Source of the DNA: Candidatus Omnitrophota bacterium
GTDB taxonomy: Bacteria; Omnitrophota; Gorgyraeia; Gygaellales; JBFMHM01
DNA: 64,000 bases
Direction of reading: 5' to 3'
Assembly (NCBI GenBank): GCA_040753015.1
Contig: JBFMHM010000002.1
Coordinates: forward strand, 193,126 to 257,125
A program made the position numbers and the translations under genes. The notes below the pieces were generated by a model. It was not told where the DNA came from. It saw nothing but the letters and a program-made list of their open reading frames with translations, and ran no database searches. Shown here piece by piece: positions 345 through 64,000 of the stretch (position 1 is its first letter; every line of letters begins with the position of its first letter).

Positions 345-901
345 GGGCTTTTATTGCTATCGAATTAGAATCTAAGGTAAAAGATAAAATTTCTCAAATT
401 CAGAATATATTACAGAAAACAAACGCTGATGCCAAATGGGTAAACCCAAAAAACATACACTTAACCTTAAAATTTTTAGGATATATTGACCAAGAAAAAA
501 GTGAAAAAATTAAACAAGTAATTGATCAAACCGCAGAAAACTTTCAAAGCTTTTCAATTGAAACATCTCAAATTGGCATATTCCCACAAAAAGGAACACC
601 GAGAGTAATTTGGATTGGAATTAAAAAAGGCAAAGAGACTTTAGAAAAAATAACCAGCAAAATAGAAGAAAAAATTGAAAAATTAGGTATCAAAAAAGAA
701 AATCGACCATTTCAAAGTCATGCCACTATTGCAAGAATTCGTAGCCCTAAAAACAAACAAATATTATTAACAGAAATCAAGCGAATAAATGAAGCTATCG
801 ACACTGAAATTCAAACCATAAGTGCCATAGCTCTATTTAGAAGTACCCTTAGTCCGTCTGGACCAACTTACAGCCTAATACACAAAGCTAAATTACAATA
901 A
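329..901 (+). CDS. thpR: RNA 2',3'-cyclic phosphodiesterase (2H phosphoesterase, LigT/ThpR family)
   Basis: 190 aa with two H-x-T/S-x motifs (HLTLKFLG and HATIAR) at the spacing expected for the 2H family. Confidence 0.7.
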   Translation: MPSKIRAFIAIELESKVKDKISQIQNILQKTNADAKWVNPKNIHLTLKFLGYIDQEKSEKIKQVIDQTAENFQSFSIETSQIGIFPQKGTPRVIWIGIKKGKETLEKITSKIEEKIEKLGIKKENRPFQSHATIARIRSPKNKQILLTEIKRINEAIDTEIQTISAIALFRSTLSPSGPTYSLIHKAKLQ

Positions 902-1645: not shown

Positions 1646-1714
1646 TTCCTCTATTCTTTATAAAAACATTGAACTAAGCGTTAAAATTATAATATTGCAA
1701 AATATTTGTTTCAA

Positions 1715-2200
1715 TTAATTATTTAAAAATGGCATGTTGAAAAATAATAAAATTCGTAATGCAGTATTTGCGTAAATTCCGGCTAAAATATCATCGCCCA
1801 TAATACCAAGTGAACCATGAAAACGCTCAATTTTTTTGGAAGGGTAAACTTTTAAACCATCAAAAGCTCGAAATAATATAAAACCTAAAAATGCAATATT
1901 TAAACTAAACGGTATAAATAATAAACTAACTAATTGTCCGCACAAATCATCAATAATTATTTTTTTGCAATCTTTTTTTCGAAAGATATATTCGGCTTTA
2001 CCACAATACAGAAAACCTAGGATAACTAACATAAAAGTTATCAAAAAATAAACTGCGGGATTTTTATATACTAAAGAATAAATTATAAGACCAAGAAAGC
2101 TACCAACTGTCCCAGGAAAAATTGGAAAATACCCAAAGAAAAATATAGTAGTAATAAGCCGCGTAATCATGATCTTAATATTATTTTTCGATTTTGCCAT
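1715..2200 (-). CDS. pgpA: phosphatidylglycerophosphatase A
   Basis: PgpA signature FGYFPIFPGTVGS; 161 aa membrane protein. Confidence 0.75.
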   Translation of the reverse strand: MAKSKNNIKIMITRLITTIFFFGYFPIFPGTVGSFLGLIIYSLVYKNPAVYFLITFMLVILGFLYCGKAEYIFRKKDCKKIIIDDLCGQLVSLLFIPFSLNIAFLGFILFRAFDGLKVYPSKKIERFHGSLGIMGDDILAGIYANTALRILLFFNMPFLNN

Positions 2201-36152: not shown

Positions 36153-38600
36153 CTATTTTTTCGCCTTCTCTACGCTAGCTTTAGTTTCAGAAAAAAATAA
36201 TTCTTCATTCTTTCGATCAACTATAATTTTTTGTCCTGACTTAAGACGGCCAGCAATTATTTCTTGGGCAAGAGGATCTTCTAAATAACGCTGAATAGTC
36301 CTTTTCAAAGGACGTGCTCCGAAAACTTGATCAAAACCCTTTTCAATCAAAAATTCTTTTGCCTGAGAAGTCAGCTCAAAATTAATATTCTGCTCTTTTA
36401 GCCTATTTAATACCTCGCCTAGTTCTATATCTAAAATCTTAAAAAGGTCTTCTTTCAGAAGCGAATGGAATACAATTATATCATCGATCCTATTCAAGAA
36501 TTCCGGTTTGAATGCTCTTTTAACCTCATCAAAAAGCTTCTCTTTCATATCCTGATAACTTACCTCTTCCTTCTGCGCCTTAAAACCAATTGAACCTTGT
36601 TGCCTTAACATTTGCGCACCAACATTAGAGGTCATAATTAAAATCGTGTTTCTAAAATCAATTTTTCTGCCAAAACTATCGGTAAGACGGCCATCTTCTA
36701 ATACTTGAAGAAGTAAATTAAACACATCCGGATGCGCCTTCTCAATTTCATCAAGAAGTATTACAGCATACGGCCTGCGCCTAATCCTTTCAGTCAGTTG
36801 GCCTCCTTCTTCATATCCTACATATCCCGGAGGAGCCCCTATTAGACGAGAAACATTAAACTTTTCCATATATTCAGACATATCAAGCTGAATTAAAGCA
36901 TTATCATCACCAAACATAAATTCCGCGATTGCGCGGGCTAAAAGAGTTTTTCCGACACCTGTTGGGCCTAAAAATACAAAAGAACCTATAGGGCGCTTTG
37001 GATCTTTAATCCCGGCACGCGATCTTCTGATCGAACGCGCAATAGCGCTTATCGCTTCTTCTTGCCCAATAACGCGTTTATGCAATTCGTCTTCGATTTT
37101 TAACAATTTTTCGCTTTCTTTTTGCTCAAGCTTTAAGATTGGAATACCTGTCCATTGTGCAACTATCTTTGCGATATCATCATCATTTACGACCGGTATA
37201 GTTTGTTCTTTTTTCTTCATCCAATTCTTATTAATATCGTCAAGCTTAACGCGCAACTCACGTTCTTTATCTCTAAATTGAGCGGCTTTCTCAAAATCTT
37301 GCGATTTAATAAACGATTCTTTTTCTTTCTTAATATTCTCCATCTCTTTCTCTAGATCCTTTATATCTGGCGGAGTAACTAAAACATTCAAACGAGAACG
37401 CGATCCTGCTTCATCTATTAAATCGATCGCCTTATCAGGTAAAAATCTACCTGTAATATAACGATCAGATAGAACCGCTGCGGCTTCCAGCGCCGAGTCA
37501 TCAAATTTAACTCTATGATGCGCCTCGTATTTATCACGGAGCCCTTTTAGAATATCAACTGTTTGGCTAACTGTTGGAGGCTCAACCATAATGGTTTGAA
37601 AACGCCTCTCAAGCGCAGCATCTTTTTCAATGTATTTGCGATATTCATCAAGAGTCGTTGCCCCTATACATTGAATCTCACCTCGTGAAAGCGATGGTTT
37701 TAAAATATTCGAAGCATCTATAGCGCCCTCTGCTGCACCTGCGCCAACCAAAGTATGCAACTCATCAATAAAAATAATTATATCTTTGGAACGTTTAAGC
37801 TCTTCCATAACAGCTTTTATACGTTCTTCAAATTGACCACGGTATTTTGTACCAGCCACCATTAAAGCTAAGTCTAAAATTACAATATGCCTATCCTTTA
37901 ATACCTCAGGTACATTACCACTAACAATTGCTTGAGCTAAGCCTTCAACAATTGCTGTTTTACCAACACCAGCCTCACCTAAAAGCACAGGATTATTTTT
38001 CGTGCGGCGGGCTAAAATCTGAATAACGCGCTCAATTTCATTTTTCCTATTTATAACCGGATCCAACTTACCTTCACTTGCAAGCTGCGTAATATCACGG
38101 CCGAATGCCTCTAGCGCAGGGTTTTTAGTTTTTCCTTTTTTAACTGCACTAAAACCCGGGGTCGCCGACCCTAAAAGTTCCATTATTTCCTCTCTGACTT
38201 TATCTAAATCTAATCCAAGATTTAAAAGCACTTGAGAAGCTACACCTTCACCTTCTCTAATTAGGCCTAAAAGTATATGCTCAGTACCAATATAATTATG
38301 GCCCAAAGCTCGCGCTTCTTCAGCAGCAAGTTCTAAAACTTTTTTTGCACGGGGGGTAAATGGTATATCGCCCATAACTTGTGTTGCCGGGCCTGGCTGG
38401 ACTAATTTTTCAATCTCCATACGAATACTTTCAAGATCAAGCCCAAGTTTTTGTAAAACCGTTGCTGCCACGCCTTCACCTTCTCTAATTAGGCCTAAAA
38501 GCATATGCTCGGTGCCAATATAATCATGATTAAAGCGGCGTGCCTCCTCTTTTGATAAAATTATTACTTTTCTTGCGCGCTCTGTAAACCTATTAAACAT
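36153..38600 (-). CDS. clpC: ATP-dependent Clp protease ATP-binding subunit ClpC
   Basis: Duplicated Clp_N repeats, two AAA+ modules (GEAGVGKT and GPTGVGKT), and a UVR motif between D1 and D2; 815 aa. Confidence 0.9.
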   Translation of the reverse strand: MFNRFTERARKVIILSKEEARRFNHDYIGTEHMLLGLIREGEGVAATVLQKLGLDLESIRMEIEKLVQPGPATQVMGDIPFTPRAKKVLELAAEEARALGHNYIGTEHILLGLIREGEGVASQVLLNLGLDLDKVREEIMELLGSATPGFSAVKKGKTKNPALEAFGRDITQLASEGKLDPVINRKNEIERVIQILARRTKNNPVLLGEAGVGKTAIVEGLAQAIVSGNVPEVLKDRHIVILDLALMVAGTKYRGQFEERIKAVMEELKRSKDIIIFIDELHTLVGAGAAEGAIDASNILKPSLSRGEIQCIGATTLDEYRKYIEKDAALERRFQTIMVEPPTVSQTVDILKGLRDKYEAHHRVKFDDSALEAAAVLSDRYITGRFLPDKAIDLIDEAGSRSRLNVLVTPPDIKDLEKEMENIKKEKESFIKSQDFEKAAQFRDKERELRVKLDDINKNWMKKKEQTIPVVNDDDIAKIVAQWTGIPILKLEQKESEKLLKIEDELHKRVIGQEEAISAIARSIRRSRAGIKDPKRPIGSFVFLGPTGVGKTLLARAIAEFMFGDDNALIQLDMSEYMEKFNVSRLIGAPPGYVGYEEGGQLTERIRRRPYAVILLDEIEKAHPDVFNLLLQVLEDGRLTDSFGRKIDFRNTILIMTSNVGAQMLRQQGSIGFKAQKEEVSYQDMKEKLFDEVKRAFKPEFLNRIDDIIVFHSLLKEDLFKILDIELGEVLNRLKEQNINFELTSQAKEFLIEKGFDQVFGARPLKRTIQRYLEDPLAQEIIAGRLKSGQKIIVDRKNEELFFSETKASVEKAKK

Positions 38601-38653
38601 CGTAATTTCCTCCCCCTTACCGTCATATATGCAATCATTTTAAATCTACGTAA

Positions 38654-39700
38654 TCACTTTAATTTTTCTCTTATTATACTTGCCCTTTTAACATCTCTCT
38701 GGCCATGATCTAAAATCCTTCCTTCGAGTTTTTGCAAATGTGCCGGCTGAATCAATATAAATAATTCATTAATTTTTACACGATCCAGATTACTAATTAT
38801 ACCAAGATCACAACCCAACCTTACCCAAGAAAGCAATTCAGTTGTTTCTTGGCTAGTAATTATATAAGCGCTCTTTAAAATACCTAGGCTTCTGCCTATC
38901 CTATCTTCTAAAAATGCTTTTTTCTGATTAATTAATAATTTACGCGCTTGCTCTTCTTGTTCAATAACTTGCCTAATAAGACCATTAAGTTTATCTATTA
39001 TACCCTCTTCATTCTGGCCTAAAGATACCTGATTAGAAATTTGAAAAAAATTCCCTTGCGCCTGTGTTCCTTCGCCATAAAGGCCTCGAGTTGTAAAACC
39101 TAATTTTGATACCGCAGATAGAATTTTATTAATCTGCATTGTAATCACAAGTGCGGGAAGATGTAACATAACTGAACCTCGCATACCAGTTCCAGTGTTA
39201 GTAGGGCATGCGGTTAAATATCCCAACTCATCAGAATAGGCAAAATTTAACTTACTAGATAATAAATCATCTATTTGATTAATTATATTCCACGCTTCAA
39301 ATAAATCAAAACCGGAACGTATTACTTGAGTTCTCAGATGGTCTTCTTCATTAATCATTATAGAAATAATTTCTTCTTGATCAACAACTATACCTTTAGA
39401 ATCAACCTTCATAGCCTGCTCGCGAGAAATAAGATGCCTCTCGATTAAAAATTGTTTGTCTAAATTATTCAGATCAGCCATTTTTAGCATTAAGGTGTTT
39501 TTTAGAAAATCAACTCTTGAAGATGCTTTAAAAACTTCTTCTAATACGCCCTGGGCCTGCTTCTTATCTGCCCACTGCGGGAATGGAATATTTTCTAGAT
39601 TTCTTGCAAGCCTAATACGGCTGGATATAACTATGTCAGAATTTGGCCCTGTGCCCTTAAGCCATTCACTTGTATGTTTGACTAAATTGTCCAAAATCAT
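38654..39700 (-). CDS. mcsB: protein arginine kinase McsB
   Basis: ATP:guanido phosphotransferase catalytic domain (CPTNTGTGMR); adjacent to mcsA and clpC. Confidence 0.85.
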   Translation of the reverse strand: MILDNLVKHTSEWLKGTGPNSDIVISSRIRLARNLENIPFPQWADKKQAQGVLEEVFKASSRVDFLKNTLMLKMADLNNLDKQFLIERHLISREQAMKVDSKGIVVDQEEIISIMINEEDHLRTQVIRSGFDLFEAWNIINQIDDLLSSKLNFAYSDELGYLTACPTNTGTGMRGSVMLHLPALVITMQINKILSAVSKLGFTTRGLYGEGTQAQGNFFQISNQVSLGQNEEGIIDKLNGLIRQVIEQEEQARKLLINQKKAFLEDRIGRSLGILKSAYIITSQETTELLSWVRLGCDLGIISNLDRVKINELFILIQPAHLQKLEGRILDHGQRDVKRASIIREKLK

Positions 39701-52465: not shown

Positions 52466-53614
52466 TCAATTTAACTGCTGAAACTTATATTTAGGAATTA
52501 ATTTAAAAATTGGGTCGAAATTTTTAGGCTGCACAATAAAAAAAATTGGCTTCAGCAATAGATTAATAAAACTATTTAAGTGCCTGCCATAAATATACAA
52601 CGGTTTTAACCTGCCGGCAAGTTGTATTTTACCGTCATAACCAGTCTGCCCTGACTGATAGATACTCAAAGAATTTTTATAGCACCATTCAATATTTAAA
52701 AAGAAGCGGTTAAAAAACAAATGGTATTTATACAGATATTCATAATCAAGGCCTAAGAATTTATCAAGGAATACTCCATATTTAACAAAACAAAGGTTAA
52801 ATCCTACAATCTTACCGCCTATCTTGTAGATAAAGAATTTTACATCATCCTTCATATTTTCTTGTATTTTAATAAAAAAATCTTTGCTTAATTTTTCAAA
52901 ATGGATAGATGAGCGTTTAAATGTCTCTAGATACAATTCATAAATTCTTTCTAATTCATTATTATCAAGTGAATTCTTTACTTCAAGCTTTAATTCTGGC
53001 AAGTCCTTGAGTTTTTTAATCTTTCTTTTTAGATCATGGCGCTTACTAGAATTTAAGCTCTTAAAGAAATCATCTATAGACGCGCCGGCAAGCCTTTGAA
53101 TCACGCAAGGGTATGCGGCAACTCTGATAGCCCCATAATCCTTTAATATATCTAAATCTTTAAATTCTTCACCAAAATCTTTAAAACCAATTGATGAAGC
53201 ATTTATCTTTCTGGTAAAATTAACCATTTCTTTATAAATTAATTCTATAAGTTCCTGTTTTCTATGCAAAAAATTTTTATCAAAACCAATATAAGCATAA
53301 TCCAAAGCGGGCGAACCGCAAATCAAGGTCCTAAAACAAAAAAAATTATTAAAAACTAATCTTATTTTATTGATATAATTTTGGACATTTTCCGGAGCGA
53401 ACAAATCAAGTTTAAAATTGAGTAAAAACAAAGGCGCGATAGATATGATTTTTTGATTTTGTATAATAAGTAAGTAATAATATTTAAACGGCCCAATATC
53501 TGACTCTTCTAATGTCTTATAAAAACCTCTTGCCTCAACTTGACTCTCAAAAAGTTTGTCAAAAATATCAGAAGGAATTTCAGAAACTGAATTCACTATT
53601 TTTGCTATACACAT
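52466..53614 (-). CDS. FemAB-like / BioF2-like tandem-GNAT acyl(aminoacyl)transferase, paralog A (tentative)
   Basis: 382 aa soluble protein, paralogous to the divergent neighbour (about 30-35% identity by eye). The segment SLNSSKRHDLKRKIKKL...IYKIGGKIVGFNLCF resembles the Acetyltransf_6/FemAB-like domain start. Confidence 0.45.
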   Translation of the reverse strand: MCIAKIVNSVSEIPSDIFDKLFESQVEARGFYKTLEESDIGPFKYYYLLIIQNQKIISIAPLFLLNFKLDLFAPENVQNYINKIRLVFNNFFCFRTLICGSPALDYAYIGFDKNFLHRKQELIELIYKEMVNFTRKINASSIGFKDFGEEFKDLDILKDYGAIRVAAYPCVIQRLAGASIDDFFKSLNSSKRHDLKRKIKKLKDLPELKLEVKNSLDNNELERIYELYLETFKRSSIHFEKLSKDFFIKIQENMKDDVKFFIYKIGGKIVGFNLCFVKYGVFLDKFLGLDYEYLYKYHLFFNRFFLNIEWCYKNSLSIYQSGQTGYDGKIQLAGRLKPLYIYGRHLNSFINLLLKPIFFIVQPKNFDPIFKLIPKYKFQQLN

Positions 53615-53677
53615 AATAAAATGTATTTTAGCATAAAAAGCTATTAAATTAATTTATATTTGTTATAATACCAAGTT

Positions 53678-54814
53678 ATGCCGAATTTAAATATAAACAT
53701 AACAGAAAATATTAATGATATCAACCCCCATATTTGGCAGAAATTGTTTGGATCTCACCCATTAAGGCAATATGGATACTACAAAAGCATTGAACAAACC
53801 CAATCTAAAAAATTTAAATTTTATTATATAAATTTTTTAAAAAATAATGAGCTTATTGCCATCGCTCCTTGTTTTATAATGAATTTTCCCATAGATTTCT
53901 CTTTAGATAAAAAATATAAAAGGATTACTAATTTTATTTCAAAAATATTCTATTATTTAATAAATATCCGCACGGTTTTTATCGGTATGCCAATGTCTTG
54001 CCAATGCGATATAGCATTTAACCCAGAATTTCAAGACAAAAATATAGTCCTTCAAGAAATTATCCCGGCTATGAAGGCTATTGCCAAAAAAGAAAATGCC
54101 TGGATGATCGCATTTAAAGATTTTCCTCGCCAATATCAATCATTTTTAAAAAACCAAAATTTTATGGAAATTGAAACTTATCCAAATGCACGGCTGGATA
54201 TAAATTTTGATTCTTTTGAAGATTACCTAAAGACATTATCTTACGCAACAAGGTATGACTTGCGCAGAAAAATGAAAACCTATGCAGGCCTTAAACCATT
54301 AACCCTAGAGATAAAAAAAGACTGCTCTGAATGCATAGATAGAATTTACCAATTATATATAAATACGGTAAATAAAAATGAGCTACACTTTGATGTAGCT
54401 AAGAAAGATTATTTTTTAAATATTGCAAAGAATATGCCTGAAGAAATCATGTATTTTATCTGGAAGCTGGATGATAAAATTGTTGCTTTCAACCAGTGTT
54501 TCTATAAAAACGATATAATGGTTGGCGATTTTATTGGTTTTGATTATAATATAGTTTATAAGTATAATCTTTACTTTGTAATATTCAGAGATAAAATAGA
54601 ATGGTGCATTAAAAATAAAATTAAAGTCCTCGATGAAGGCACATTTACGCTAGAACTAAAAAAGCGGCTAAAATTTAAATTTTATAATAATTATTTTTAT
54701 ATGAAACCTAACTTTAAATTATTTGAACCGATAGCAAGAATAATTACGCCATTTTTCGCACCATCTGATCAGGATAAACAATTAAAAATATTAAAAAGAT
54801 TTAAAAAAATATGA
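53678..54814 (+). CDS. FemAB-like / BioF2-like tandem-GNAT acyl(aminoacyl)transferase, paralog B (tentative)
   Basis: 378 aa. Aligned blocks with paralog A: KFYYI..L.IAPCF.MNF, YDLRRKMK, IYQLYINT...HFD..KK.YF, KIVAFNQCF, IEWCIKN. Confidence 0.45.
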   Translation: MPNLNINITENINDINPHIWQKLFGSHPLRQYGYYKSIEQTQSKKFKFYYINFLKNNELIAIAPCFIMNFPIDFSLDKKYKRITNFISKIFYYLINIRTVFIGMPMSCQCDIAFNPEFQDKNIVLQEIIPAMKAIAKKENAWMIAFKDFPRQYQSFLKNQNFMEIETYPNARLDINFDSFEDYLKTLSYATRYDLRRKMKTYAGLKPLTLEIKKDCSECIDRIYQLYINTVNKNELHFDVAKKDYFLNIAKNMPEEIMYFIWKLDDKIVAFNQCFYKNDIMVGDFIGFDYNIVYKYNLYFVIFRDKIEWCIKNKIKVLDEGTFTLELKKRLKFKFYNNYFYMKPNFKLFEPIARIITPFFAPSDQDKQLKILKRFKKI

Positions 54815-55215
54815 ATCGTGCTAAACATCTAACGCTAAAAATATTTTCTTTAATCGTATTGACTGATTTAATAGAAAGCTCGTCACAGTTTTTCCTAAAA
54901 AAGGGTACAATTAATTTTCCGAGTATGAGCCTAAGCAATCTATCTGAATATATACTTTTTATAAAATCGATGATCAATTCCCATTTTATTTGGCTAGGAT
55001 TTTTAATGATAACTATAAACTTCTTTTTATGGATGGTAGTATTAAATAAGGTTGATTTAAGTGTGGCATTTCCTGCTGGAAGCGCATCATTTTTATTCGT
55101 GCCTATAGCTGCTATATTTTTCTTAGGAGAACATATTGGAATCCTACGTTGGCTGGGAATGATTTTAATTATTGGCGGTGTTATATTAATTTCAAAAAGC
55201 AGTTATGATAGTTAA
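54811..55215 (+). CDS. small 4-TM DMT/EamA-like membrane protein (ArnE-like flippase subunit candidate)
   Basis: 134 aa, four hydrophobic helices, LGE motif (FFLGEHIGILRWLG); overlaps the preceding gene by 4 nt (operon). Confidence 0.5.
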   Translation: MNRAKHLTLKIFSLIVLTDLIESSSQFFLKKGTINFPSMSLSNLSEYILFIKSMINSHFIWLGFLMITINFFLWMVVLNKVDLSVAFPAGSASFLFVPIAAIFFLGEHIGILRWLGMILIIGGVILISKSSYDS

Positions 55216-55582
55216 AATTTATATATTCATATTCTTATCTGCAATTGTCAGTGCATTCGCACAAGTATGTTTCAAAAATGTGGCTGATAGATTTGAGAAT
55301 GTCGGCATACATAATCAATTCCAATTCTATAAGCAGATATTGTTAAGAAAAACTACCTGGCTTGGATTTTTATTTGTATTTTTGGATATTTTTACCTGGA
55401 CAGTAGTATTAAATTTTACCGAGCTTAGTTTCGCCTTCCCTTTCTGCAGTTTGAATTATATAATCGTTTTAGGGACATCCAAATTTGTCCTAAAAGAAAA
55501 AGTTTCCTTAAAAAGGTTATTAGGCACGCTTCTAATTATGGCGGGAATTATCCTCGTCGGCCTAACCCACAACAGCCACTAA
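55205..55582 (+). CDS. small 4-TM DMT/EamA-like membrane protein (ArnF-like flippase subunit candidate)
   Basis: 125 aa, four helices; paired with the preceding ORF as in the ArnE/ArnF heterodimeric small-transporter arrangement. Confidence 0.5.
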   Translation: MIVKIYIFIFLSAIVSAFAQVCFKNVADRFENVGIHNQFQFYKQILLRKTTWLGFLFVFLDIFTWTVVLNFTELSFAFPFCSLNYIIVLGTSKFVLKEKVSLKRLLGTLLIMAGIILVGLTHNSH

Positions 55583-55631: not shown

Positions 55632-56486
55632 TTATATCTTCTCTAAAATCACATTAAATCGTTCAAAGACTTTATCCAAGTTGAAACTCTCACCTATCCT
55701 AATAACTGGTATCAATTCTGTTTCCGTCTGTTTGCGAAGTAAATATAAAGTTTCTTGATCTAAGCCAAAGTTTTTGTTGTAATTACCATTATAATTCTCA
55801 TCTTCGAGTTTCTTCTTAAAAATACCAAGAAAATGCTTATCATTAAAATCAAACTTAGCCTCCGATATAAACCACAAATCATAGTAATCACGGATTGCCA
55901 CATCTCTTCTTGTAATTGCAGCTTTAAGCTTCTCTGCAACAGCCTCATTCAACGAAAGCGACAATATCTTATTTTGGGGTATCAAATTCTCGCCTGTAAA
56001 AGGATCTTTGTAAAAATGCGTAACTATATTATGCACGGGCTTATCAATAGGGGTTTGCCTAAGCGATATCTCTAATTTAATATTTTCGTCCTTGCCGGTA
56101 ATAAATGACGGATATGATATATAAAACACATATTGCGTAGAATTATTAAATCCCTTTCCCTGCGGTATTTCGCTTTTTAAATCTAATAGCTTCAACAATC
56201 CTGGCATCTTTTTCCTTATAGGCGTAATCGCACGGGACCGCTTAGAACGAATTTCAAGGCTATCTGGACTGTAGTATGTAAAATCGATATCCTCGCTTAA
56301 CCTATGATAGTTAAGATGGATCTTATTTAAAAGCGTACCGCCTTTAAAAACTATTTTTTCGCTCAGATGAGATTCAATAGAATTCAAAATAAGCGTCAAA
56401 TAATAATCCTTTTCAACCATCTCAAGCCGAAATTTATGTTTCTGCGCGATGACAGGAATTATTTGTTCTAGTCTTACTTTATCCAT
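55632..56486 (-). CDS. nucleotidyltransferase AbiEii/AbiGii toxin family protein (type IV TA toxin, DUF1814)
   Basis: N-terminal KDYYLTLIL...IVFKGGTLLNKIHLNYHRLSEDIDFTY, characteristic of AbiEii; 284 aa. Confidence 0.7.
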   Translation of the reverse strand: MDKVRLEQIIPVIAQKHKFRLEMVEKDYYLTLILNSIESHLSEKIVFKGGTLLNKIHLNYHRLSEDIDFTYYSPDSLEIRSKRSRAITPIRKKMPGLLKLLDLKSEIPQGKGFNNSTQYVFYISYPSFITGKDENIKLEISLRQTPIDKPVHNIVTHFYKDPFTGENLIPQNKILSLSLNEAVAEKLKAAITRRDVAIRDYYDLWFISEAKFDFNDKHFLGIFKKKLEDENYNGNYNKNFGLDQETLYLLRKQTETELIPVIRIGESFNLDKVFERFNVILEKI

Positions 56487-57252
56487 TAATAATTATTCTC
56501 CAGGTATTATTAATCTCGCCTTTATTTGACACACTATTATACAAAGGAGTATATCCTTTTTCTCCTACGTCAATCTTGCTCAATAACTTTTTATCAGCTC
56601 CTAGTTTTTCCAAGAAAAAACCCGCGCGCCTGCGAACCCTTAAGACGGGGTATTTAGTTAGATATTCAACGAATAACGATATATTAAGTTTAGTGAGCTG
56701 ATCTTTCAAAATGATAAAAGCTTTTCTTATATCATAAAATTCAAAAACATCTATCATCGCGCGTTCTTTTGTCGGAAAAACAACCTCCTCACTCTTTATT
56801 TTGCGTGTTTCCAAGCCAAAAAACCGGTTGGGCAATACCTTAATCAATTTATATCTAACGCCCAGAAATGTCTTACGTATTGAATACCTGTCATTAACTA
56901 CTTGAATCATCTGGGCAATTTGATCAGTAAAACCGTAGGAATTAAAAACAGTGGCGTAACCGATATAATAATTGGCTTTTCTTGCTAAAGCCTTCGCGAT
57001 TAAATATTCATTCCCTGCCCAAAGGCCACTAGGAGCCTTCATTGGAATAAAAAGATAGATGTTCTTAATAATTTTCTTTAATCTGCCTTTTTCTAACAGC
57101 TTCTTTATTAAGTATGCCGCCAGCTTTTTATTCTTACAAAAAAAGATAATTTCCTGCTTGGTATAAATCTCTTTTCCATAGAACTCTAACCGCGTTATTA
57201 GTTCCACTTCCTTGGTAGAAAGTGTCTTTTGTATCGTTATTTTTCTTTTCAC
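56479..57252 (-). CDS. AbiEi-like antitoxin / transcriptional regulator (type IV TA antitoxin)
   Basis: 257 aa immediately upstream of AbiEii and overlapping it by 8 nt. N-terminal winged-HTH-like segment (LSTKEVELITRLEFYGKEIYTKQEIIFFC). Confidence 0.55.
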   Translation of the reverse strand: MKRKITIQKTLSTKEVELITRLEFYGKEIYTKQEIIFFCKNKKLAAYLIKKLLEKGRLKKIIKNIYLFIPMKAPSGLWAGNEYLIAKALARKANYYIGYATVFNSYGFTDQIAQMIQVVNDRYSIRKTFLGVRYKLIKVLPNRFFGLETRKIKSEEVVFPTKERAMIDVFEFYDIRKAFIILKDQLTKLNISLFVEYLTKYPVLRVRRRAGFFLEKLGADKKLLSKIDVGEKGYTPLYNSVSNKGEINNTWRIIING

Positions 57253-57361: not shown

Positions 57362-60300
57362 CTATGAAACGAGGGTAATTTGAATTAGTGATAAATCAAT
57401 GCCGCCGTGAGCGGCTTCTGTAGGGGCAGGCTCCTGTGTCCGCCCAGAAGGCCTAGGATATTGCATAGCTAATTCTCCTATATCTTCTATGGTTATATTT
57501 GGCGAAAGATTTGCGCTTTGGGTCAATGCCAAAGCCCGGTTAGCCAGCCAATGAAAACCTCTTACTCTATGATTAGGCAATAGTTGCGCAAGGCCTAAGC
57601 GCAAATCATCATCTAGCCCAATGCAATATAAGTCTTGCCCGCGTATTTGCGCAAATTCATGCCCAAACTCTGTTAATCTTTCGGAATCAATAATATTCGA
57701 TGAACCAGTAATACTTTTAGTTCTTTGGCTGTATCTTTGGTTTTCCGCATCATCATAAAATTCAAGATTTATTTGAGTTGTGTCTTGGCCTGCAAAACTA
57801 GCCCGCGCCTTATTCCATCGAGCCAAAACCCGAGGTATAATTACTTTGGCTAAACCCATTAAATTTAAACTAGTCTTATGCGGCAAAGTTACCTTTTCTG
57901 AAACAATACTGCCGTCAGGCAGGACAAATATTAATCTATTTAAACAGTAATGATAATTACTTCTACCAACACATCTATTTTTAAATTGCACTAATATTGA
58001 GTTTATAAAAGAGTGTATCCAAGGCTCAAAATTATCTTGGCTGCCTAAAGAACGAAAATCTAAAAGTAAGCTTATACCGTCTTCGTATTCTTCTTGATAC
58101 TCTTTGACGGCTGGTGGTTTATCCGGGCTTTGCCTGGCTGTTTTTTTCCAGTCAATGTCTCTTGGTGAATCGCCGTATTGATAGTGTCTTGACTGATGAT
58201 ATTCGCTGCCTCGGCCAGATCTTCTGCCGCTTTTGCCGCTGAGCCGTAAATGTCCATTTGTCACCGGAGGAATAACCTTTGTTCCTCTCGATAAACCTTG
58301 TTCTATTTTTTGCGCAAGGCTTAAGCTATCACCTACGCTTACCAAAGAACCAGATTGAGCGCGTTGTTGACTTTGGCTGTCAAAACTTTTAATTATCGCT
58401 TCAAGCCGGCTATAAGCTTGTTTTGGTGCAGTAATATCTCCACTGCTAATTTCTTCAACAAGGCTGCGAATTTGTTTATTCATTTTTTGCCTTTGACGAT
58501 GTTCTAACTTACTGCGCACAAGTAAAAGGCTAACTGCAGGAATTAAACTTAAAAGCCGTCTTGCTAATTTTGGGTTTGCTTCTTTGGGAGACTCTAAAGC
58601 AATTGCTCGTACGCAATCAAATATTACTCTTTCTCTGCCTTGTAACCGTTTACGCAAATTTTCAATACGGCCTTGCTCCTCGTTACTTAATTCTTTATTA
58701 GCCAACATTAATTCTGCAAGCAGCTTTCTTGCATTACCTAACTCACCGCCAAACCAAGGGTTATCCTGCCAAATTTTATTAATTACATCATTTGCGCTAG
58801 CACCCAAAATTAAATCTTTACGCCTTAGATAATCTGACATAAAACTTAAGGCAAAATGCAGCAAGCCAATAAGAAATAGTAAAAATAGGCCGTCTTGGTT
58901 TGCCTCTTTCCAAAATTCAACCCATAAAGAATCAATAGTTTTTTGGCCAGAAAATTCTGGCCCTAAAATTTCGTTTAGTTTATCATTAATTGCTTGCCAT
59001 TCTCTTAGGCTAGCCTCTTTATTTGCCGCTTCTACTGGACTAAGCGAACGAATTTTGCAAGCCTCTGCGTTTGCTTGTAAAAGCTTTATTGCTTTAAATA
59101 ATGTATCGGAGCGCGTATCAGCGCTTAACTCAACATCAAACGCAAAGCCGCTAGAACCCGTCCTTGTTTCTAAATATCTATGCAAACCCTGGAATATTCT
59201 CTCCAAATCACCTTGGCTTAAATTTGCATCAGGGCTGTCTAGGCCAACGACAAAAAGTTTTCTCTCTGCTTCTTTAAGCGCGTCTTCATATGGCCCAACA
59301 TTCCCAGTTTGAGGAACAAGTGAATTTAATTGCTCAATTGCTTTTCTTGCCTCTTGGTTATAATAATAGGCAGGATAAACACTTGTGGTTATACCAAACT
59401 TTTCTCTTTGGCTTGCCTCATAAACATCAAACATCTCTCGAATTTTTTCCTGGCCTAAACGATGTAAAATTGTTTTTGATCTTTCGCTATTTATAGTAAC
59501 TAGTTGAATTAAAATTTCAAGGCCTATCCTATGCTTACTAAAAAAATGTATCAAGTTTACTATTTCGTCATTTGTTAAAGCACCATTTACAGCATCTACA
59601 AAAAACTCAAGATTTCTATCAATTATCTCCACTGTGCGGTCAAAATCAAAATATTTTAAATTATCACTTTTAAGCATATCTTTTAAAATAAAAACGATAT
59701 AAGCGCTGCTTGCCTCGTCTTCTCCTAATTTCTCTTTTAAAATTTTATCAAGATTTTCCCATCTTAAATCAAAACGATCTTTCCTAATATCAGTTTCAAA
59801 GTTATCCACAACGCCATACCTACCTGCAACTGCCTGGCGAAAATTATGCCAGTGGCCCTCTCCTGCTACCATGCTCGTAGATTCGCCATTACTATGATAG
59901 CTAATACGTTCAATCCATTCCCTCTTTGCCTGATAGCTTTTTGCATCCATGTTCCCATTAAAACTATTATCGGCCAAAGGCCCAAAAAATCGATAACTTT
60001 GATTTGCTTGGCCTTCATTTTCAACAGTAGCCGCAATCCATTTATCTTTATTGAAAAATTTAAAAAATACTAATTTATTGCTCGCAAAAATAACAGCAAG
60101 ATTAGATACGCCTTCAAAAATAGATATGCCTAAATCATTAATACCGTTTTTATCAATTTTTAGAATTCTCATACTAGTATATGGTATTTGGACAACTTTA
60201 TTAGAAATACGTATTTCTTCTCCAACTATAGCAACTAACTTGCCTTGTTCAGTAGAAATTTGCACACTTTTATAACTATCGGTTGGCTCTTTAACAGATG

Positions 60301-63300
60301 GCCCAAACAATTGATAGCCGCCACCAAGAATTGGCGATAAAACAGCAAGCCAAGTGCCGTCAGCGACAGCATATACCTCTAAGTACTCACTATATTCTGC
60401 ATTAATGTATGAACCGGCAGCAGGGCCGATTAATTTATATTTACCATTACCAAGTTCAATAGCAGCAACCCATGTTTCATCAGGAAAAACAAATAATGAG
60501 GTGATCTCTTTATATCTTGCTTCTGTTAATTTAACTTTTTCTGCAATTAAGCCAACAAAGCTATATTCAGGATTAGGATCATTATCGCTTATTCGATGTT
60601 CAACTACAGCCAACCATCCACCGCTAGGTGTAATTCTAATATCTTTAATTCCGCTAAATCTCTGATCACTAAGTCCTGCTTTTTCTGCCAAAGGCCCGAT
60701 AAAGCCCAGCCTATTGAATTGATATTCTTTGCCCTCATTATATCTAACTACAGCCAGCCAATTATCCGGCATTGCACTAGAATATAATGCTATATTTAAA
60801 AACCCTTGTCCGCGGTATTGCTCGGTACCTTCGCCAAATAAATAAACTTTATTATCGCTTTTTACGGCAACTCTACCTTGATTATAGGTATGTATCTTTG
60901 TTTGTTCTCCAATTTTAATCTTTCTTCCTGTAATCAAGTCAACCACATAACCATCTTCTATAACTAAATCATTTAATACAGCATTCCTTCCGGAATGAGG
61001 AATATCATAGGGCTCAAACAATTCCCAACATTCTTCTCCCGAATCATCTCCGGACAATAATTTCTCAGATGATGGAACAAAACTAGATGGGACAAAATCA
61101 TCGGATAAAAATAATGTTTGCGTTGGTTTTTTTTCGTTTTTAAAATTATTAATAAATTTCATCACAACTTGTTTTGCTTCAGTTGTATCAATATCGGGAA
61201 ATTGCCTTTCTACCTCAGCAATAACTCCAAACAAATAATTGCCAAATGCCATAAGCTGGTATTTATCTTTAATATTGGTTAGCGCTAAAGGAATGTTTGT
61301 TTCAATTAGGCGCAATGCCTGCTCTCTGGTCAATTTAGTAGTATGTAAAATTCTAAGCCTCTTTGAATAAAAAGCATTCAGCAGCTTATAATATTTTTCT
61401 TTTGGCATATTAACCCCATTAGCCCGATCTTTTTCAATTTCAAACTCAAGCTCAAGGCCTTCTAAGATAGCAGCTAAATTTATTTTAATTTGTTCAGCGC
61501 GTGCCTTGATAAAATCAAATTCCTTTTGCCAATCCTCATCAGTTACACCTTGCTTTCCGTATAGAGGCGATGCATTCTCGCTAAAGGCTACTGACTCACC
61601 AACTCCTTCTTCTGTCCAAATCCAAGAATGCCTTATACCATTCACATTACCAGATGGTTCTGATCTATAGCCTGAATGTACCTCAGCCTTAATATCCAAC
61701 TCGCTTAATAAAATCGCATCGACAACTGCGAAACCATCGCATTGCATAGCATAATTTTCAAACATACTTTTTAATGCATTACCAGCTGGTTTTAGATTTG
61801 GGTTAGTCGAATAATAAAACAATTTCAATATTTTTTCTTTGACCTTTTTTCTTTGCTCAAGCGGTAATGATTTTGCTTTTTCTAAAATTCTCTTAATTTC
61901 CGGCGGTAAGCTATCACCAACATTATTTCCGACGATCTCAAAAGGTTTTATCTCTGGTAATTCGCCTGTTTGAGCCTTACGCACGCCAATTCTTACTGCG
62001 CCGGTATCAGCACTTGTATGTAAGTGCCATATTTTATTTGCGCGGTCAAAATAAACTCTTACATCATCAACTTTATTCTCGGTTTGTATATCAGCAATAA
62101 CATAACCTGAAGGAACCAATAACCTATTTGGTTGAGGAGACATAACAACCCATTTTTCCGCTTTACCGCTCAATCGCCAGTGAATTACATCTGGGGAACT
62201 GGGAATTTTTACTCCTAAAATAGGGTCTATTTTAGAAAAACTTACCTGTAAAAGATATTCCATACCTCCGCCTTCAACTTGAGCAAAAACATCCCCTGAG
62301 ATATCTTGATTAGCTGATCCCATGCCAATATTTTCTGGTGATAAATTCTTAGTTAATTCTTGAGGAACAACTTTTTTATCTTTTAGTTCTAGCTGAGTAA
62401 CATCTGTTGTTTTTGAATCTAAAGGCTCAACTTTATGCCAGGTTTTTGGTTTAGGTACTTCTTGGGTTTGTGGAACTATTAGCTCATAAGGCTTTACTTG
62501 TGCCTGCAATTCTTGAAAACCCTTATCACGCTCTTGCCTTAATTGTTCTTCTTCTACGCGTAATTGCTTAAGCTTCTCCCTCTTTTCTTTAAGCTCTCTT
62601 TGTTTTTCTTCCTCTTCGACTTTGTCTAAATCTTTTGCTTGTGCCAAAATAAAATTAAAATTTGTTAATTCAGCGATTAATTTATCGCTATCTTGTTTAG
62701 AATCATCTTCTTCTTGGCTTATGGTGGTTTGTTGTAGAGACGCATTGCTATGCGTCTCTACTTGAGTAATTATATTTTTTTGCACATCATTAGAATCAGA
62801 AATTGCATTTACCACTCCAAACAAAGAGCCTGCACCTAAAAATGCGGCTAAGGTAAAAACCAACCCTCGACGAACAGAATACCGCCTTTGTATACGCCGA
62901 AAGTCTCTACCTACATTATGCTCTATTGCACCTTGAGCGCGGGGAGTTTGCCTTATTACACTGGTTACAGGTACGCCATATTGGCCTGGCTTAAGCATAG
63001 CACCTTCAGCTAATATATCAGCCTGTTGCCTGACTGCGGCATTTCTTAAGCTTTTGTCGCCGGTTGAACTTTCAAATCCAAACGCTATAGCTTGTTCCAA
63101 TGCAGCTCGTTCTTCTGAATTTGGTTCTGCGCCGGTAAAAACTTCTGAATGCGTAACCCGCTCAAACAAATCTTTAAGATGCCATAAACTTTGCGTTCGG
63201 TTAACATTTAAACGTTCTTTAACAAACTTATTTAGCGCTTCTTTTTTACGCGCTTGACTAATTTCATCACTTGATAATTTAGCTATTTCTCCTTGGCGCT

Positions 63301-64000
63301 TTATAATTTCTTTCACATCATCACTTGCAGCTTGCTTCTGCGCTTGCCATTTTTGCATAACAGCCGCTGCTTGTAAATGCAAGACTTCGTATTCTTTTTT
63401 ATTTTTTGGCTCAAAAATACCTTTAGCTTTGATATATACTCGTGGCCAAATTAAGTAAGCATAAACAATTAACCAGTCTGATATGCTTTGATGAACCTTT
63501 TCTAATTCTTCCAAATATTTTTCTAAAACACTATATGCCTTTGAGTTTGCTTCAACATGTTTCATTGCAGCCTTAACTTGACTTACAATTTCCTGGTATT
63601 GTTTCGTAGCTTTATCTAGGGCTAACCAAGGGTCCTCTTGACTACAAGCTGTTTTATACGCCTCTTCCATCTTGCTCATACGCCTAATTAATGCGCGAAA
63701 TCGCCATCTTTCTATCGCCCTCTTTACCCTTAAATAAAGTTCTCTTGTATCCTGCCACATTAATTGTAAATTTGTGCTTCCGTCTGGTCTTAAGTAGGTT
63801 TTATAGTCTCGCTTACACAGATAAGCTAATAACAAAATCACCGGATTCACCCCTGAGCCAACAAAAGTAACCCCCTCATCCCCTACGCCTTGGTCGGCAA
63901 TGGTGGGGGCAGGAGTATTGTCTTCATCGCTAACCTCCATTCCTGTTGCCATTAAAGCTGTAAAAACGTACAACGCCTTTACTATCTCGGTTAAAGGAAG
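57362..64000 (-). CDS. giant multidomain membrane protein (more than 2212 aa, 5' end beyond window): TM - coiled coil - transglutaminase-like core - tandem WG-like repeats - TM - DUF58 (vWA-like, MoxR-associated) domain
   Basis: The frame stays open to nt 64000; the ORF-track M at 63973 is a TTG inside the frame. TGase-like Cys/His core YAMQCDGFAVVDAILL...GIRHSWIWTEEG (about 61574-62263). Six to seven degenerate ~45-aa repeats, Y-x-F-x-GP...W-L/V-A-A/V-V (59879-60856). TM helices at about 62801-62869 and 58838-58894. DUF58 signature RGSEYHQSRHYQYGDSPRDIDWKKTARQS...VKEYQEEYEDGISLLLDF (58145-58183 within 57524-58276). Confidence 0.7.
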   Translation of the reverse strand, partial: LPLTEIVKALYVFTALMATGMEVSDEDNTPAPTIADQGVGDEGVTFVGSGVNPVILLLAYLCKRDYKTYLRPDGSTNLQLMWQDTRELYLRVKRAIERWRFRALIRRMSKMEEAYKTACSQEDPWLALDKATKQYQEIVSQVKAAMKHVEANSKAYSVLEKYLEELEKVHQSISDWLIVYAYLIWPRVYIKAKGIFEPKNKKEYEVLHLQAAAVMQKWQAQKQAASDDVKEIIKRQGEIAKLSSDEISQARKKEALNKFVKERLNVNRTQSLWHLKDLFERVTHSEVFTGAEPNSEERAALEQAIAFGFESSTGDKSLRNAAVRQQADILAEGAMLKPGQYGVPVTSVIRQTPRAQGAIEHNVGRDFRRIQRRYSVRRGLVFTLAAFLGAGSLFGVVNAISDSNDVQKNIITQVETHSNASLQQTTISQEEDDSKQDSDKLIAELTNFNFILAQAKDLDKVEEEEKQRELKEKREKLKQLRVEEEQLRQERDKGFQELQAQVKPYELIVPQTQEVPKPKTWHKVEPLDSKTTDVTQLELKDKKVVPQELTKNLSPENIGMGSANQDISGDVFAQVEGGGMEYLLQVSFSKIDPILGVKIPSSPDVIHWRLSGKAEKWVVMSPQPNRLLVPSGYVIADIQTENKVDDVRVYFDRANKIWHLHTSADTGAVRIGVRKAQTGELPEIKPFEIVGNNVGDSLPPEIKRILEKAKSLPLEQRKKVKEKILKLFYYSTNPNLKPAGNALKSMFENYAMQCDGFAVVDAILLSELDIKAEVHSGYRSEPSGNVNGIRHSWIWTEEGVGESVAFSENASPLYGKQGVTDEDWQKEFDFIKARAEQIKINLAAILEGLELEFEIEKDRANGVNMPKEKYYKLLNAFYSKRLRILHTTKLTREQALRLIETNIPLALTNIKDKYQLMAFGNYLFGVIAEVERQFPDIDTTEAKQVVMKFINNFKNEKKPTQTLFLSDDFVPSSFVPSSEKLLSGDDSGEECWELFEPYDIPHSGRNAVLNDLVIEDGYVVDLITGRKIKIGEQTKIHTYNQGRVAVKSDNKVYLFGEGTEQYRGQGFLNIALYSSAMPDNWLAVVRYNEGKEYQFNRLGFIGPLAEKAGLSDQRFSGIKDIRITPSGGWLAVVEHRISDNDPNPEYSFVGLIAEKVKLTEARYKEITSLFVFPDETWVAAIELGNGKYKLIGPAAGSYINAEYSEYLEVYAVADGTWLAVLSPILGGGYQLFGPSVKEPTDSYKSVQISTEQGKLVAIVGEEIRISNKVVQIPYTSMRILKIDKNGINDLGISIFEGVSNLAVIFASNKLVFFKFFNKDKWIAATVENEGQANQSYRFFGPLADNSFNGNMDAKSYQAKREWIERISYHSNGESTSMVAGEGHWHNFRQAVAGRYGVVDNFETDIRKDRFDLRWENLDKILKEKLGEDEASSAYIVFILKDMLKSDNLKYFDFDRTVEIIDRNLEFFVDAVNGALTNDEIVNLIHFFSKHRIGLEILIQLVTINSERSKTILHRLGQEKIREMFDVYEASQREKFGITTSVYPAYYYNQEARKAIEQLNSLVPQTGNVGPYEDALKEAERKLFVVGLDSPDANLSQGDLERIFQGLHRYLETRTGSSGFAFDVELSADTRSDTLFKAIKLLQANAEACKIRSLSPVEAANKEASLREWQAINDKLNEILGPEFSGQKTIDSLWVEFWKEANQDGLFLLFLIGLLHFALSFMSDYLRRKDLILGASANDVINKIWQDNPWFGGELGNARKLLAELMLANKELSNEEQGRIENLRKRLQGRERVIFDCVRAIALESPKEANPKLARRLLSLIPAVSLLLVRSKLEHRQRQKMNKQIRSLVEEISSGDITAPKQAYSRLEAIIKSFDSQSQQRAQSGSLVSVGDSLSLAQKIEQGLSRGTKVIPPVTNGHLRLSGKSGRRSGRGSEYHQSRHYQYGDSPRDIDWKKTARQSPDKPPAVKEYQEEYEDGISLLLDFRSLGSQDNFEPWIHSFINSILVQFKNRCVGRSNYHYCLNRLIFVLPDGSIVSEKVTLPHKTSLNLMGLAKVIIPRVLARWNKARASFAGQDTTQINLEFYDDAENQRYSQRTKSITGSSNIIDSERLTEFGHEFAQIRGQDLYCIGLDDDLRLGLAQLLPNHRVRGFHWLANRALALTQSANLSPNITIEDIGELAMQYPRPSGRTQEPAPTEAAHGGIDLSLIQITLVS

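Follow-up and report, generated by a model that had tools for sequence, protein, structure and literature searches.

The operon that encodes a MoxR ATPase, a DUF58 protein and a membrane transglutaminase is very common in bacteria and archaea. Here we ask what is encoded by a giant open reading frame (ORF) at one end of a 64,000-nucleotide stretch of Candidatus Omnitrophota bacterium (assembly GCA_040753015.1, contig JBFMHM010000002.1, positions 193,126 to 257,125 of the forward strand; hereafter the window), in which a first-pass annotation had placed a transglutaminase-like (TGL) module ahead of a DUF58 module in a single polypeptide of more than 2200 residues. The minus-strand frame is uninterrupted from position 64000 to the stop codon at 57362-57364, giving 2212 codons in the window, and a database search matched the whole of this part at 100% identity to a deposited protein of 2710 aa, here P0001, which lies on a 260-kb contig and is named by NCBI 'MAG: DUF58 domain-containing protein [Candidatus Omnitrophota bacterium]' (MAG, metagenome-assembled genome). 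The gene therefore extends 498 codons past the window edge, in line with the annotation, which had the frame running off the edge and being even longer. Window residue n corresponds to P0001 residue n+498, as checked by translation; residues 1-498 are known solely from the deposited protein, and the upstream flank of the gene lies beyond the stretch covered. The giant ORF is real, a genuine 2710-residue membrane protein of an uncultured Omnitrophota bacterium. With confidence that stands about midway between doubt and certainty, we read P0001 as a cytoplasmic-membrane, single-chain and greatly expanded version of the DUF58 and TgpA pair of the MoxR-DUF58(vWA)-TgpA/YebA operon (vWA, von Willebrand factor type A).

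By its profile match and motif, the C-terminal module is a DUF58 domain. The annotation had staked the fusion on significant profile matches to Transglut_core or DUF58, and in a Pfam scan of P0001 DUF58 passed its cut-off while Transglut_core did not. DUF58 matched window residues 1936-1982, within the 1900-2150 predicted for it, with 28.9 bits against a cut-off of 23.4, covering only profile positions 1-44 of 216; over scans the score was 28.2-30.9 bits, in excess of the gathering score of 23.4, and the profile also matched 12 of 15 family members (best E 3e-12). The motif SRHYQYGDSPRDIDWKKTAR, of the form R.Y..GD..R.IDW...AR, aligns residue for residue with classical DUF58 proteins of ~430-490 aa. 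In a structure model of P0001 2186-2710 (predicted local distance difference test, pLDDT, 68.9), strands and helices alternate as in a vWA-like domain, and the top Foldseek matches of the DUF58 region were vWA domains (collagen VI, NorD and integrin I), NorD being the vWA partner of the MoxR-class ATPase NorQ. Because the best of these PDB matches were non-significant, at E 0.17 or worse, a vWA-like fold is consistent with the model but not proven. A missing DxSxS motif (metal ion-dependent adhesion site, MIDAS) was considered as a mark of this DUF58 and dropped, as classical DUF58 proteins are also without DxSxS ('LDCGRRM').

For the upstream module, the Transglut_core profile landed on window residues 711-793, inside the 620-800 proposed for the core, but scored 14.8 bits (E 0.035), under its cut-off of 23 bits. 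Scores over scans were 14.8-15.9 bits (E 0.016-0.04), short of the gathering score of 23, and two of 11 relatives matched, even at E ~0.015. A family profile of the transglutaminase core, searched against PDB sequences, returned no transglutaminase and nothing relevant. An AlphaFold2 model of P0001 residues 1040-1880, built from 11 sequences, reached pLDDT 75-92 over 1069-1340 and has a beta-sandwich followed by an alpha/beta core with the papain-like/transglutaminase fold. Its top solved structure in Foldseek was the periplasmic domain of TgpA (E 2e-7, probability 1.00). TgpA is the membrane transglutaminase of a MoxR-DUF58-transglutaminase operon (PMC3507681; PMC3495828), which bears out the link to that operon drawn in the annotation. 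A 17-sequence alignment of the region showed the motif 'FYYxTNP', C1252 and H1289 to be invariant or nearly so, with P0017 the only one of 17 relatives without both the catalytic Cys and His; neither Cys1252 nor His1289 varies in alignments A1-A3, of which A2 consists of contiguous substrings and A3 is a narrow core alignment. E1300, 11 positions past His1289, aligns with E or D in most relatives ('IEEAT'; canonical 'YDPT'), and of the Cys-His-Asp triad to be checked the first two residues are conserved and the putative third is a glutamate. Together, the Foldseek agreement and the conserved residues point to a TgpA-type transglutaminase-like domain that includes TgpA's accessory beta-sandwich and is too divergent for the Pfam profile; as modelled, this is what the module is, and its enzymatic activity is presumed.

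We take PA2875 and PA2874 of Pseudomonas aeruginosa to be a MoxR-type ATPase and a DUF58 protein, respectively. Both are co-transcribed with tgpA, whose product is essential in P. aeruginosa and has a domain reported to be periplasmic and to show transglutaminase activity in vitro (PMC3507681). Like TgpA (PA2873), P0001 has conserved catalytic Cys and His residues, a domain flanked by transmembrane (TM) segments and a tie to a DUF58 module. The two differ in that identity is 14-17%, with Transglut_core below threshold; Pfam found neither the DUF3488 N-terminal multi-TM block nor DUF4129 in P0001, where single TM helices flank the domain; DUF58 lies downstream in the same chain rather than in a separate upstream gene; and P0001 has ~1000 additional residues of predicted extracytoplasmic helical regions and propeller, no adjacent MoxR and, at the proposed third catalytic position, Glu in place of Asp. 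In the MoxR-vWA(DUF58)-YebA system, the MoxR, vWA and TGL genes are strictly associated across bacteria and archaea and the mechanism is conjectural (PMC3495828; PMC3507681), whereas in P0001 the modules are domains of one polypeptide, TGL then DUF58, and the ATPase is missing nearby.

The annotation had called this architecture unusual. The fusion is real but not a one-off, being the conserved core of an undescribed family with ~15-25 other giant proteins of 2100-7700 aa from independent assemblies. Relatives were gathered by an exhaustive HMMER search with the C-terminal 1200 residues, which gave 116 matches, 39 of them at E <= 1e-10, and segment-wise comparison found one common module order: K/R-rich helical region, TgpA-like domain, 'mid' helices, repeats, helical region, the second TM helix (TM2) with its linker, and DUF58. 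Members include P0004, P0006, P0007, P0010-P0012, P0014, P0015, P0017, P0019, P0032 and P0098, and P0003, at 24% identity, is also colinear by BLASTP. The TGL and DUF58 segments are both matched by 13 relatives, which thus hold them, as P0001 does, in one polypeptide. Omnitrophota is the source of every member carrying a source name; one 2.1-kb contig bears the label Planctomycetia. Locus scans with A3, in which the back-translated pattern was strict, gave two genome and three metagenome loci. The family is not single-copy, as the 2.17-Mb contig Ga0315338_1000003 carries two paralogues ~230 kb apart (loci L007 and L008). The first 16 kb of L008 have no long ORF listed, as would be expected if a giant ORF extended past the start of the locus. 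Regions before the core and after DUF58 vary among members and are mutually unrelated. In five giant relatives scanned whole and eight proteins of ~1150 aa, no Pfam family but DUF58 rose above its cut-off; the set of ~1150-aa proteins shares the linker and DUF58 part only, and the linker is specific to the giant family and these related proteins.

Two TM helices, TM1 and TM2, bracket the entire transglutaminase, repeat and helical block. The annotation had placed two such helices around a probable extracytoplasmic region within the spacer between the TGL and DUF58 modules. Both helices exist; the first lies upstream of the TGL domain and not in the spacer, and the coiled coil assigned to the spacer is upstream of that domain as well. 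The segment RRIQRRYSVRR stands immediately N-terminal to TM1, and relatives have a TM segment at the equivalent place, usually with more K/R on its N-side, while a basic cluster just after TM2 is found in 13 of 15 aligned relatives. From these flanks, by the positive-inside rule, we infer that P0001 896-2201, with the TGL domain and the propeller, lies outside the cytoplasmic membrane and that the linker, DUF58 and tail lie inside, which agrees with the reported periplasmic location of the TgpA domain (PMC3507681). Most relatives (P0004, P0007, P0012, P0014 and others) begin with a signal peptide and have no strong TM helices beyond TM1 and TM2. P0001 is without a signal peptide, and an extra hairpin (498-516 and 542-560) resolves its crossing count. 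Its proposed first arm is helix h0, a segment conserved in P0146, the sole other protein with the same N-terminal head. The second arm falls within a 53-residue module (542-594) proposed to be a TM helix with its C-side in the cytoplasm: the helix has no K/R before it and four after it, KRDYKTYLR coming next. The same module is found at 81% identity (43/53, BLASTP) in P0002, a 1586-aa signal-peptide protein encoded on the same contig outside the window and otherwise unrelated to P0001. The K/R-rich region that follows (595-876) gave weak segment phmmer matches to P0004, P0007, P0019, P0021, P0024 and P0047.

Six to seven tandem WLAVV/YxFxGP repeats had been annotated between the two modules, and they are real. 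The unit has the form '..W(L/V/I)A(V/A)(V/I/L)..(Y/F)x(F/L)xGP'; clear units begin at P0001 1579, 1627, 1675, 1715 and 1819, with about two degenerate ones between, and the composite motif was observed four times, compared to no match in any of 2000 shuffles. The label 'WG-like' has to be given up: the WG_beta_rep profile of Pfam had no match in P0001 or relatives, and the sole repeat-family hint was a weak PD40 match in one relative (E 0.068). The region was modelled as all-beta (pLDDT 70-89 at model residues 490-700) and its structure matches were seven-bladed propellers (LGI1 EPTP, the acylaminoacyl-peptidase propeller and the trilobed-protease propeller), so that the AlphaFold check suggested in the annotation yields a model of a beta-propeller with tandem blades. 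On either side of it the chain is helical. The 'mid' region was modelled with helices at model residues 280-415 (pLDDT 55-73) and has conserved columns in A1 and A2; the second helical region gave segment phmmer matches in relatives down to E 4e-21 and is colinear with P0003 by BLASTP. At the C-terminus, a 'GGIDL(N/T)P... P.I..I.P' tail ends many family members, two short DUF58 proteins and the unrelated P0002, shortened to GGIDLSLIQITLVS in P0001 and to GGIDLSQVQITIIG in P0002. A profile search with this tail found only short proteins, mostly on short contigs and probably fragments; it may be a sorting or recognition tag.

The part of P0001 that lies outside the window adds a further module. 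Residues 108-393 match the kinase-like domain of Legionella SidJ (E 6e-27; 97 bits over 110-393), and six SidJ residues are conserved (Table 1); residue roles in SidJ have been shown by mutagenesis, and SidJ homologues outside Legionella have been noted previously (PMC6858067). Judged from this match, with catalytic and migrated-pocket residues conserved, the N-terminus is a SidJ-like kinase-fold (glutamylase/AMPylase-type) domain. SidJ and SdjA of Legionella (PDB 7mir, 6plm, 6k4k and 7ppo) are calmodulin-dependent glutamylases. The P0001 head shares their kinase-like domain and the six residues but lacks the calmodulin-binding motif IQxxxR, which was not found anywhere in P0001, and no SidE-type target is known for it. 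It caps a giant membrane protein, and the bacterium concerned is environmental, either free-living or epibiotic, whereas SidJ is a Dot/Icm effector. Segment comparison revealed no counterpart of the head in any other family member, and a search with the head returned one relative only, P0146, a 636-aa protein on a 3.4-kb contig.

The annotation had also seen no MoxR ATPase in the window, and this holds. Four MoxR signature motifs were absent from the 64 kb and from nine further loci (L001-L009), the negative at this locus covering the window, which lies downstream of the first 498 codons and of the upstream flank. Ten mid-size ORFs of the window and the ten nearest the giant gene had other Pfam identities or no Pfam match. 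Genes called up to 10 kb away from P0003, P0004 and P0007 were unrelated housekeeping genes, with no AAA_3 match among them.

On our reading of P0001 as a single-chain DUF58 and TgpA pair, TM1 and TM2 would bracket ~1300 extracytoplasmic residues made up of a stalk, the TgpA-type beta-sandwich with its Cys-His-Glu core, helices, a roughly seven-bladed propeller and a second set of helices. Past TM2, the conserved helical linker, the DUF58 (vWA-like) domain and the short 'GGIDL' tail would be cytoplasmic. The Cys-His enzyme outside could cross-link or cleave envelope proteins or peptides held by the propeller, and DUF58 would be the site of docking or control on the cytoplasmic side, the role supposed for the separate DUF58 protein with respect to TgpA. 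It might pair with a MoxR-type ATPase from another locus or with some other protein of the cytoplasm. In P0001 only, a cytoplasmic SidJ-like head would be attached through the membrane hairpin, probably modifying a cytoplasmic target or P0001 itself. A role of the extracytoplasmic part in adhesion, crosslinking or envelope remodelling, as raised in the annotation, is plausible. What the data show is which domains are present, how they are ordered and conserved through the family, that catalytic residues are conserved and that a neighbouring MoxR is lacking; topology, enzymatic activity, substrates and any coupling across the membrane are inferences.

Several observations weigh against this reading. 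First, the signal peptide and two TM helices of most relatives contradict the charge-based topology by one crossing. Second, MoxR is missing from the window and, at five other family loci, from the 10 kb around the gene. Third, the vWA fold is not established by the model, with Foldseek at E 0.17 and 44 of 216 DUF58 positions matched. Fourth, the third catalytic residue, as placed by alignment, appears to be Glu instead of Asp. Fifth, the TGL domain of YebA-type proteins has been assigned to a cytoplasmic loop, which puts it together with MoxR and the vWA protein on one side of the membrane (PMC3495828), and such a same-side placement would be at odds with a TM helix separating TGL from DUF58. 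Lastly, the transglutaminase domain is weakly supported by sequence: the Transglut_core score is sub-threshold, and a family profile finds no PDB transglutaminase by sequence.

Two alternatives deserve weighing, both of which we consider improbable. P0001 could be exported by an Omnitrophota cell that lives as a predator or parasite, and serve it as a weapon or for attachment, its core a delivery or anchoring scaffold, its variable heads and tails effectors acting on or in the prey, and its 'TM' helices entering the target membrane. Predation has been proposed for Omnitrophota giant proteins (bioRxiv 10.1101/2023.11.21.568195). The conflict of signal peptide and two TM helices vanishes if inner-membrane rules do not hold, and such a protein would suit the typical signal peptide of most relatives, the variable and unrelated N- and C-terminal extensions, the presence of at least two paralogues in one genome and a SidJ-like head that is unique in the family and whose sole characterised relatives are Legionella effectors. 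P0001 itself, however, has no signal peptide and no calmodulin-binding IQ motif; TM1 and TM2 have positive-inside flanks, a pattern consistent through the family for TM2 and seen in most members for TM1; DUF58 domains are known as cytoplasmic partners in MoxR systems; and the neighbours are housekeeping genes, with no secretion-system or immunity-like genes among them.

The other alternative, given a similarly low rating, is that P0001 acts as a membrane-proximal protease within a degradation system of MoxR type (Zhang and Aravind 2012), all parts being on the same side. The fused vWA/DUF58 would recruit proteins, a MoxR ATPase from another locus in the genome would unfold them, and the TGL domain would cleave them. 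Both this mechanism and the MoxR-vWA-TGL association were proposed in PMC3495828, the Cys-His arrangement of the TGL core is papain-like, and a TGL-DUF58 single-chain fusion is expected of a physical complex. A strong TM2 between TGL and DUF58 nevertheless implies opposite sides of the membrane, no MoxR was found near the gene at six family loci with flanking sequence, and TgpA in vitro showed transglutaminase activity, not proteolysis (PMC3507681). An assembly chimera or read-through joining separate transglutaminase, repeat and DUF58 genes is extremely improbable even for a metagenome-assembled genome known from assembly alone, since the frame is unbroken over 6.6 kb, GC content across it is even (0.36-0.39) and the same module order recurs in more than 15 proteins from independent assemblies, among them those of the 2.17-Mb contig and the 24%-identical colinear homologue, which also answers the chimera check raised in the annotation.

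The individual modules and their genomic association were known already, and the deposited entry is annotated just as 'DUF58 domain-containing protein'. New here are the fusion, the giant propeller-containing core conserved in the family, the MoxR-free neighbourhood and the SidJ-like head. A natural fusion of TgpA-like and DUF58 domains across a single TM helix argues for one membrane-spanning complex with DUF58 on the cytoplasmic face, and it constrains competing models, notably same-side placement of all three components. The family also forms a recognisable conserved class among the largely unannotated Omnitrophota giant proteins, and the SidJ-like head widens the range of the glutamylase fold beyond effectors of intracellular pathogens. 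As a speculation to which we assign lower probability than to either alternative just discussed, the family might be a self-contained, MoxR-free trans-envelope machine confined to Omnitrophota, a group of ultra-small bacteria that may be predators or epibionts. In such a machine the cytoplasmic side would govern an outward-facing propeller and transglutaminase-like enzyme, and these would remodel or attack an envelope, whether that of the cell itself or of a host. Its cytoplasmic control side would comprise DUF58, the 'GGIDL' tail and, in P0001, an active SidJ-type AMPylase/glutamylase. If so, the head of P0001 would be the first SidJ-fold enzyme to form part of a bacterial membrane protein instead of being delivered into a eukaryote, and the family would show directly that DUF58 and TgpA-type transglutaminases make up a single physical unit spanning the membrane.

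Two further comparisons place the protein. In bifidobacteria a kinase gene joins the cluster, there called PFNA (pkb2-fn3-aaa_atp-duf58-tgm; PMC6803598). PFNA adds a kinase-fold protein and the beta-rich FN3, which P0001 parallels with its kinase-fold head and propeller; the kinase fold is of SidJ type in P0001, whereas the PFNA kinase is a Hanks-type Ser/Thr kinase. The Omnitrophota giant proteins of two earlier papers (bioRxiv 10.1101/2023.11.21.568195 and 10.64898/2026.06.07.730766) are from the same phylum and are likewise very long, multi-domain and TM-anchored; P0001 is far smaller than those proteins of at least 30,000 aa, and a conserved core of its own marks its family. DUF58, transglutaminase and MoxR go unmentioned in both papers.

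Table 1. Features of the giant gene and of P0001, from the C-terminal end of the gene in the window to the head outside it
Feature	Window position (nt)	Strand	P0001 residues	Basis and remarks
Window part of giant gene	57362..64000	-	499-2710	Open frame and match to P0001; includes stop codon 57362-57364
C-terminal tail GGIDLSLIQITLVS	57365..57406	-		Shortened 'GGIDL(N/T)P... P.I..I.P' tail; motif scan and tail alignment
DUF58-type domain	57515..58234	-	2421-2660	Motif SRHYQYGDSPRDIDWKKTAR at nt 58055-58195
Helical linker, predicted cytoplasmic	58235..58834	-	2221-2420	Segment E-values down to 1e-30; helical model, pLDDT 65-90
TM2 GLFLLFLIGLLHFALSFMS	58835..58891	-	2202-2220 (window 1704-1722)	Hydropathy 2.13; DYLRRKD next
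Second helical region	58895..59944	-	1851-2200	Family-conserved; no known relative
Beta-propeller-like repeats	59945..60967	-	1510-1850	Five clear and about two degenerate blades
Long helical 'mid' region	60968..61567	-	1310-1509	Family-conserved YY..L, YQLMA.GHF and W.L.EP motifs; no known relative
TgpA-like domain	61568..62290	-	1069-1309	Beta-sandwich, then transglutaminase-like/papain-like core
Proposed catalytic Glu	61595-61597	-	Glu1300	
Proposed catalytic His	61628-61630	-	His1289	
Proposed catalytic Cys	61739-61741	-	Cys1252	
Acidic linker with coiled coil	62291..62809	-		Predicted extracytoplasmic stalk between TM1 and TgpA-like domain
Coiled coil EEEKQRELKEKREKLKQLRVEEEQLRQ	62534-62614	-	961-987 (window 463-489)	String search
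TM1 GLVFTLAAFLGAGSLFGVV	62810..62866	-	877-895 (window 379-397)	Hydropathy 2.03
K/R-rich, mostly helical region	62867..63712	-	595-876	Predicted cytoplasmic
53-residue module	63713..63871	-	542-594	Hydrophobic core 546-562; hydropathy segment 542-560; hydropathy 1.84
Helix h0 ALPLTEIVKALYVFTALMA	63947..64000	-	498/499-516	Moderately hydrophobic; hydropathy 1.49
SidJ-like head, SidJ D545			D322	Conserved
SidJ-like head, SidJ D542			D319	Conserved
SidJ-like head, SidJ N534			N311	Conserved
SidJ-like head, SidJ H492			H267	Conserved
SidJ-like head, SidJ E381			E147	Conserved
SidJ-like head, SidJ K367			K133	Conserved

Several other features of the window were recorded. PADLOC assigned the giant protein to no defence system. 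Directly downstream of the giant gene is an AbiEi antitoxin gene (56479-57252, minus strand; PADLOC E 3e-41), with an 8-nt overlap to an AbiEii nucleotidyltransferase toxin gene (55632-56486, minus strand; Pfam E 9e-30). GC content in the window is lowest at 52-56 kb (0.28-0.31, compared to ~0.35 elsewhere), and this stretch holds two divergent FemAB-like/GNAT acyltransferase genes (52466-53614, minus; 53678-54814, plus) and two adjacent EamA half-transporter genes (54811-55215 and 55205-55582). Apart from genes at 52466-55582, the second half of the window has no sizeable gene on the plus strand, and the low-GC stretch may be an acquired island; past it, downstream, lie housekeeping genes. 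An ATP:guanido phosphotransferase gene, McsB-like (38654-39700, minus), adjoins an 815-aa ORF with two AAA+ Walker A motifs (36153-38600, minus) that is probably ClpC-like. The arrangement at 36153-39700 resembles the McsB-ClpC protein-arginine-phosphorylation degradation pair, which is known mainly from Firmicutes. Searches for tRNA genes and Rfam families gave no match in the 64 kb. Of the 51 ORFs of at least 150 aa, 49 lie on the minus strand, and every 2-kb bin has a negative GC skew, so the window appears to lie within one replichore with a strong gene-strand bias.

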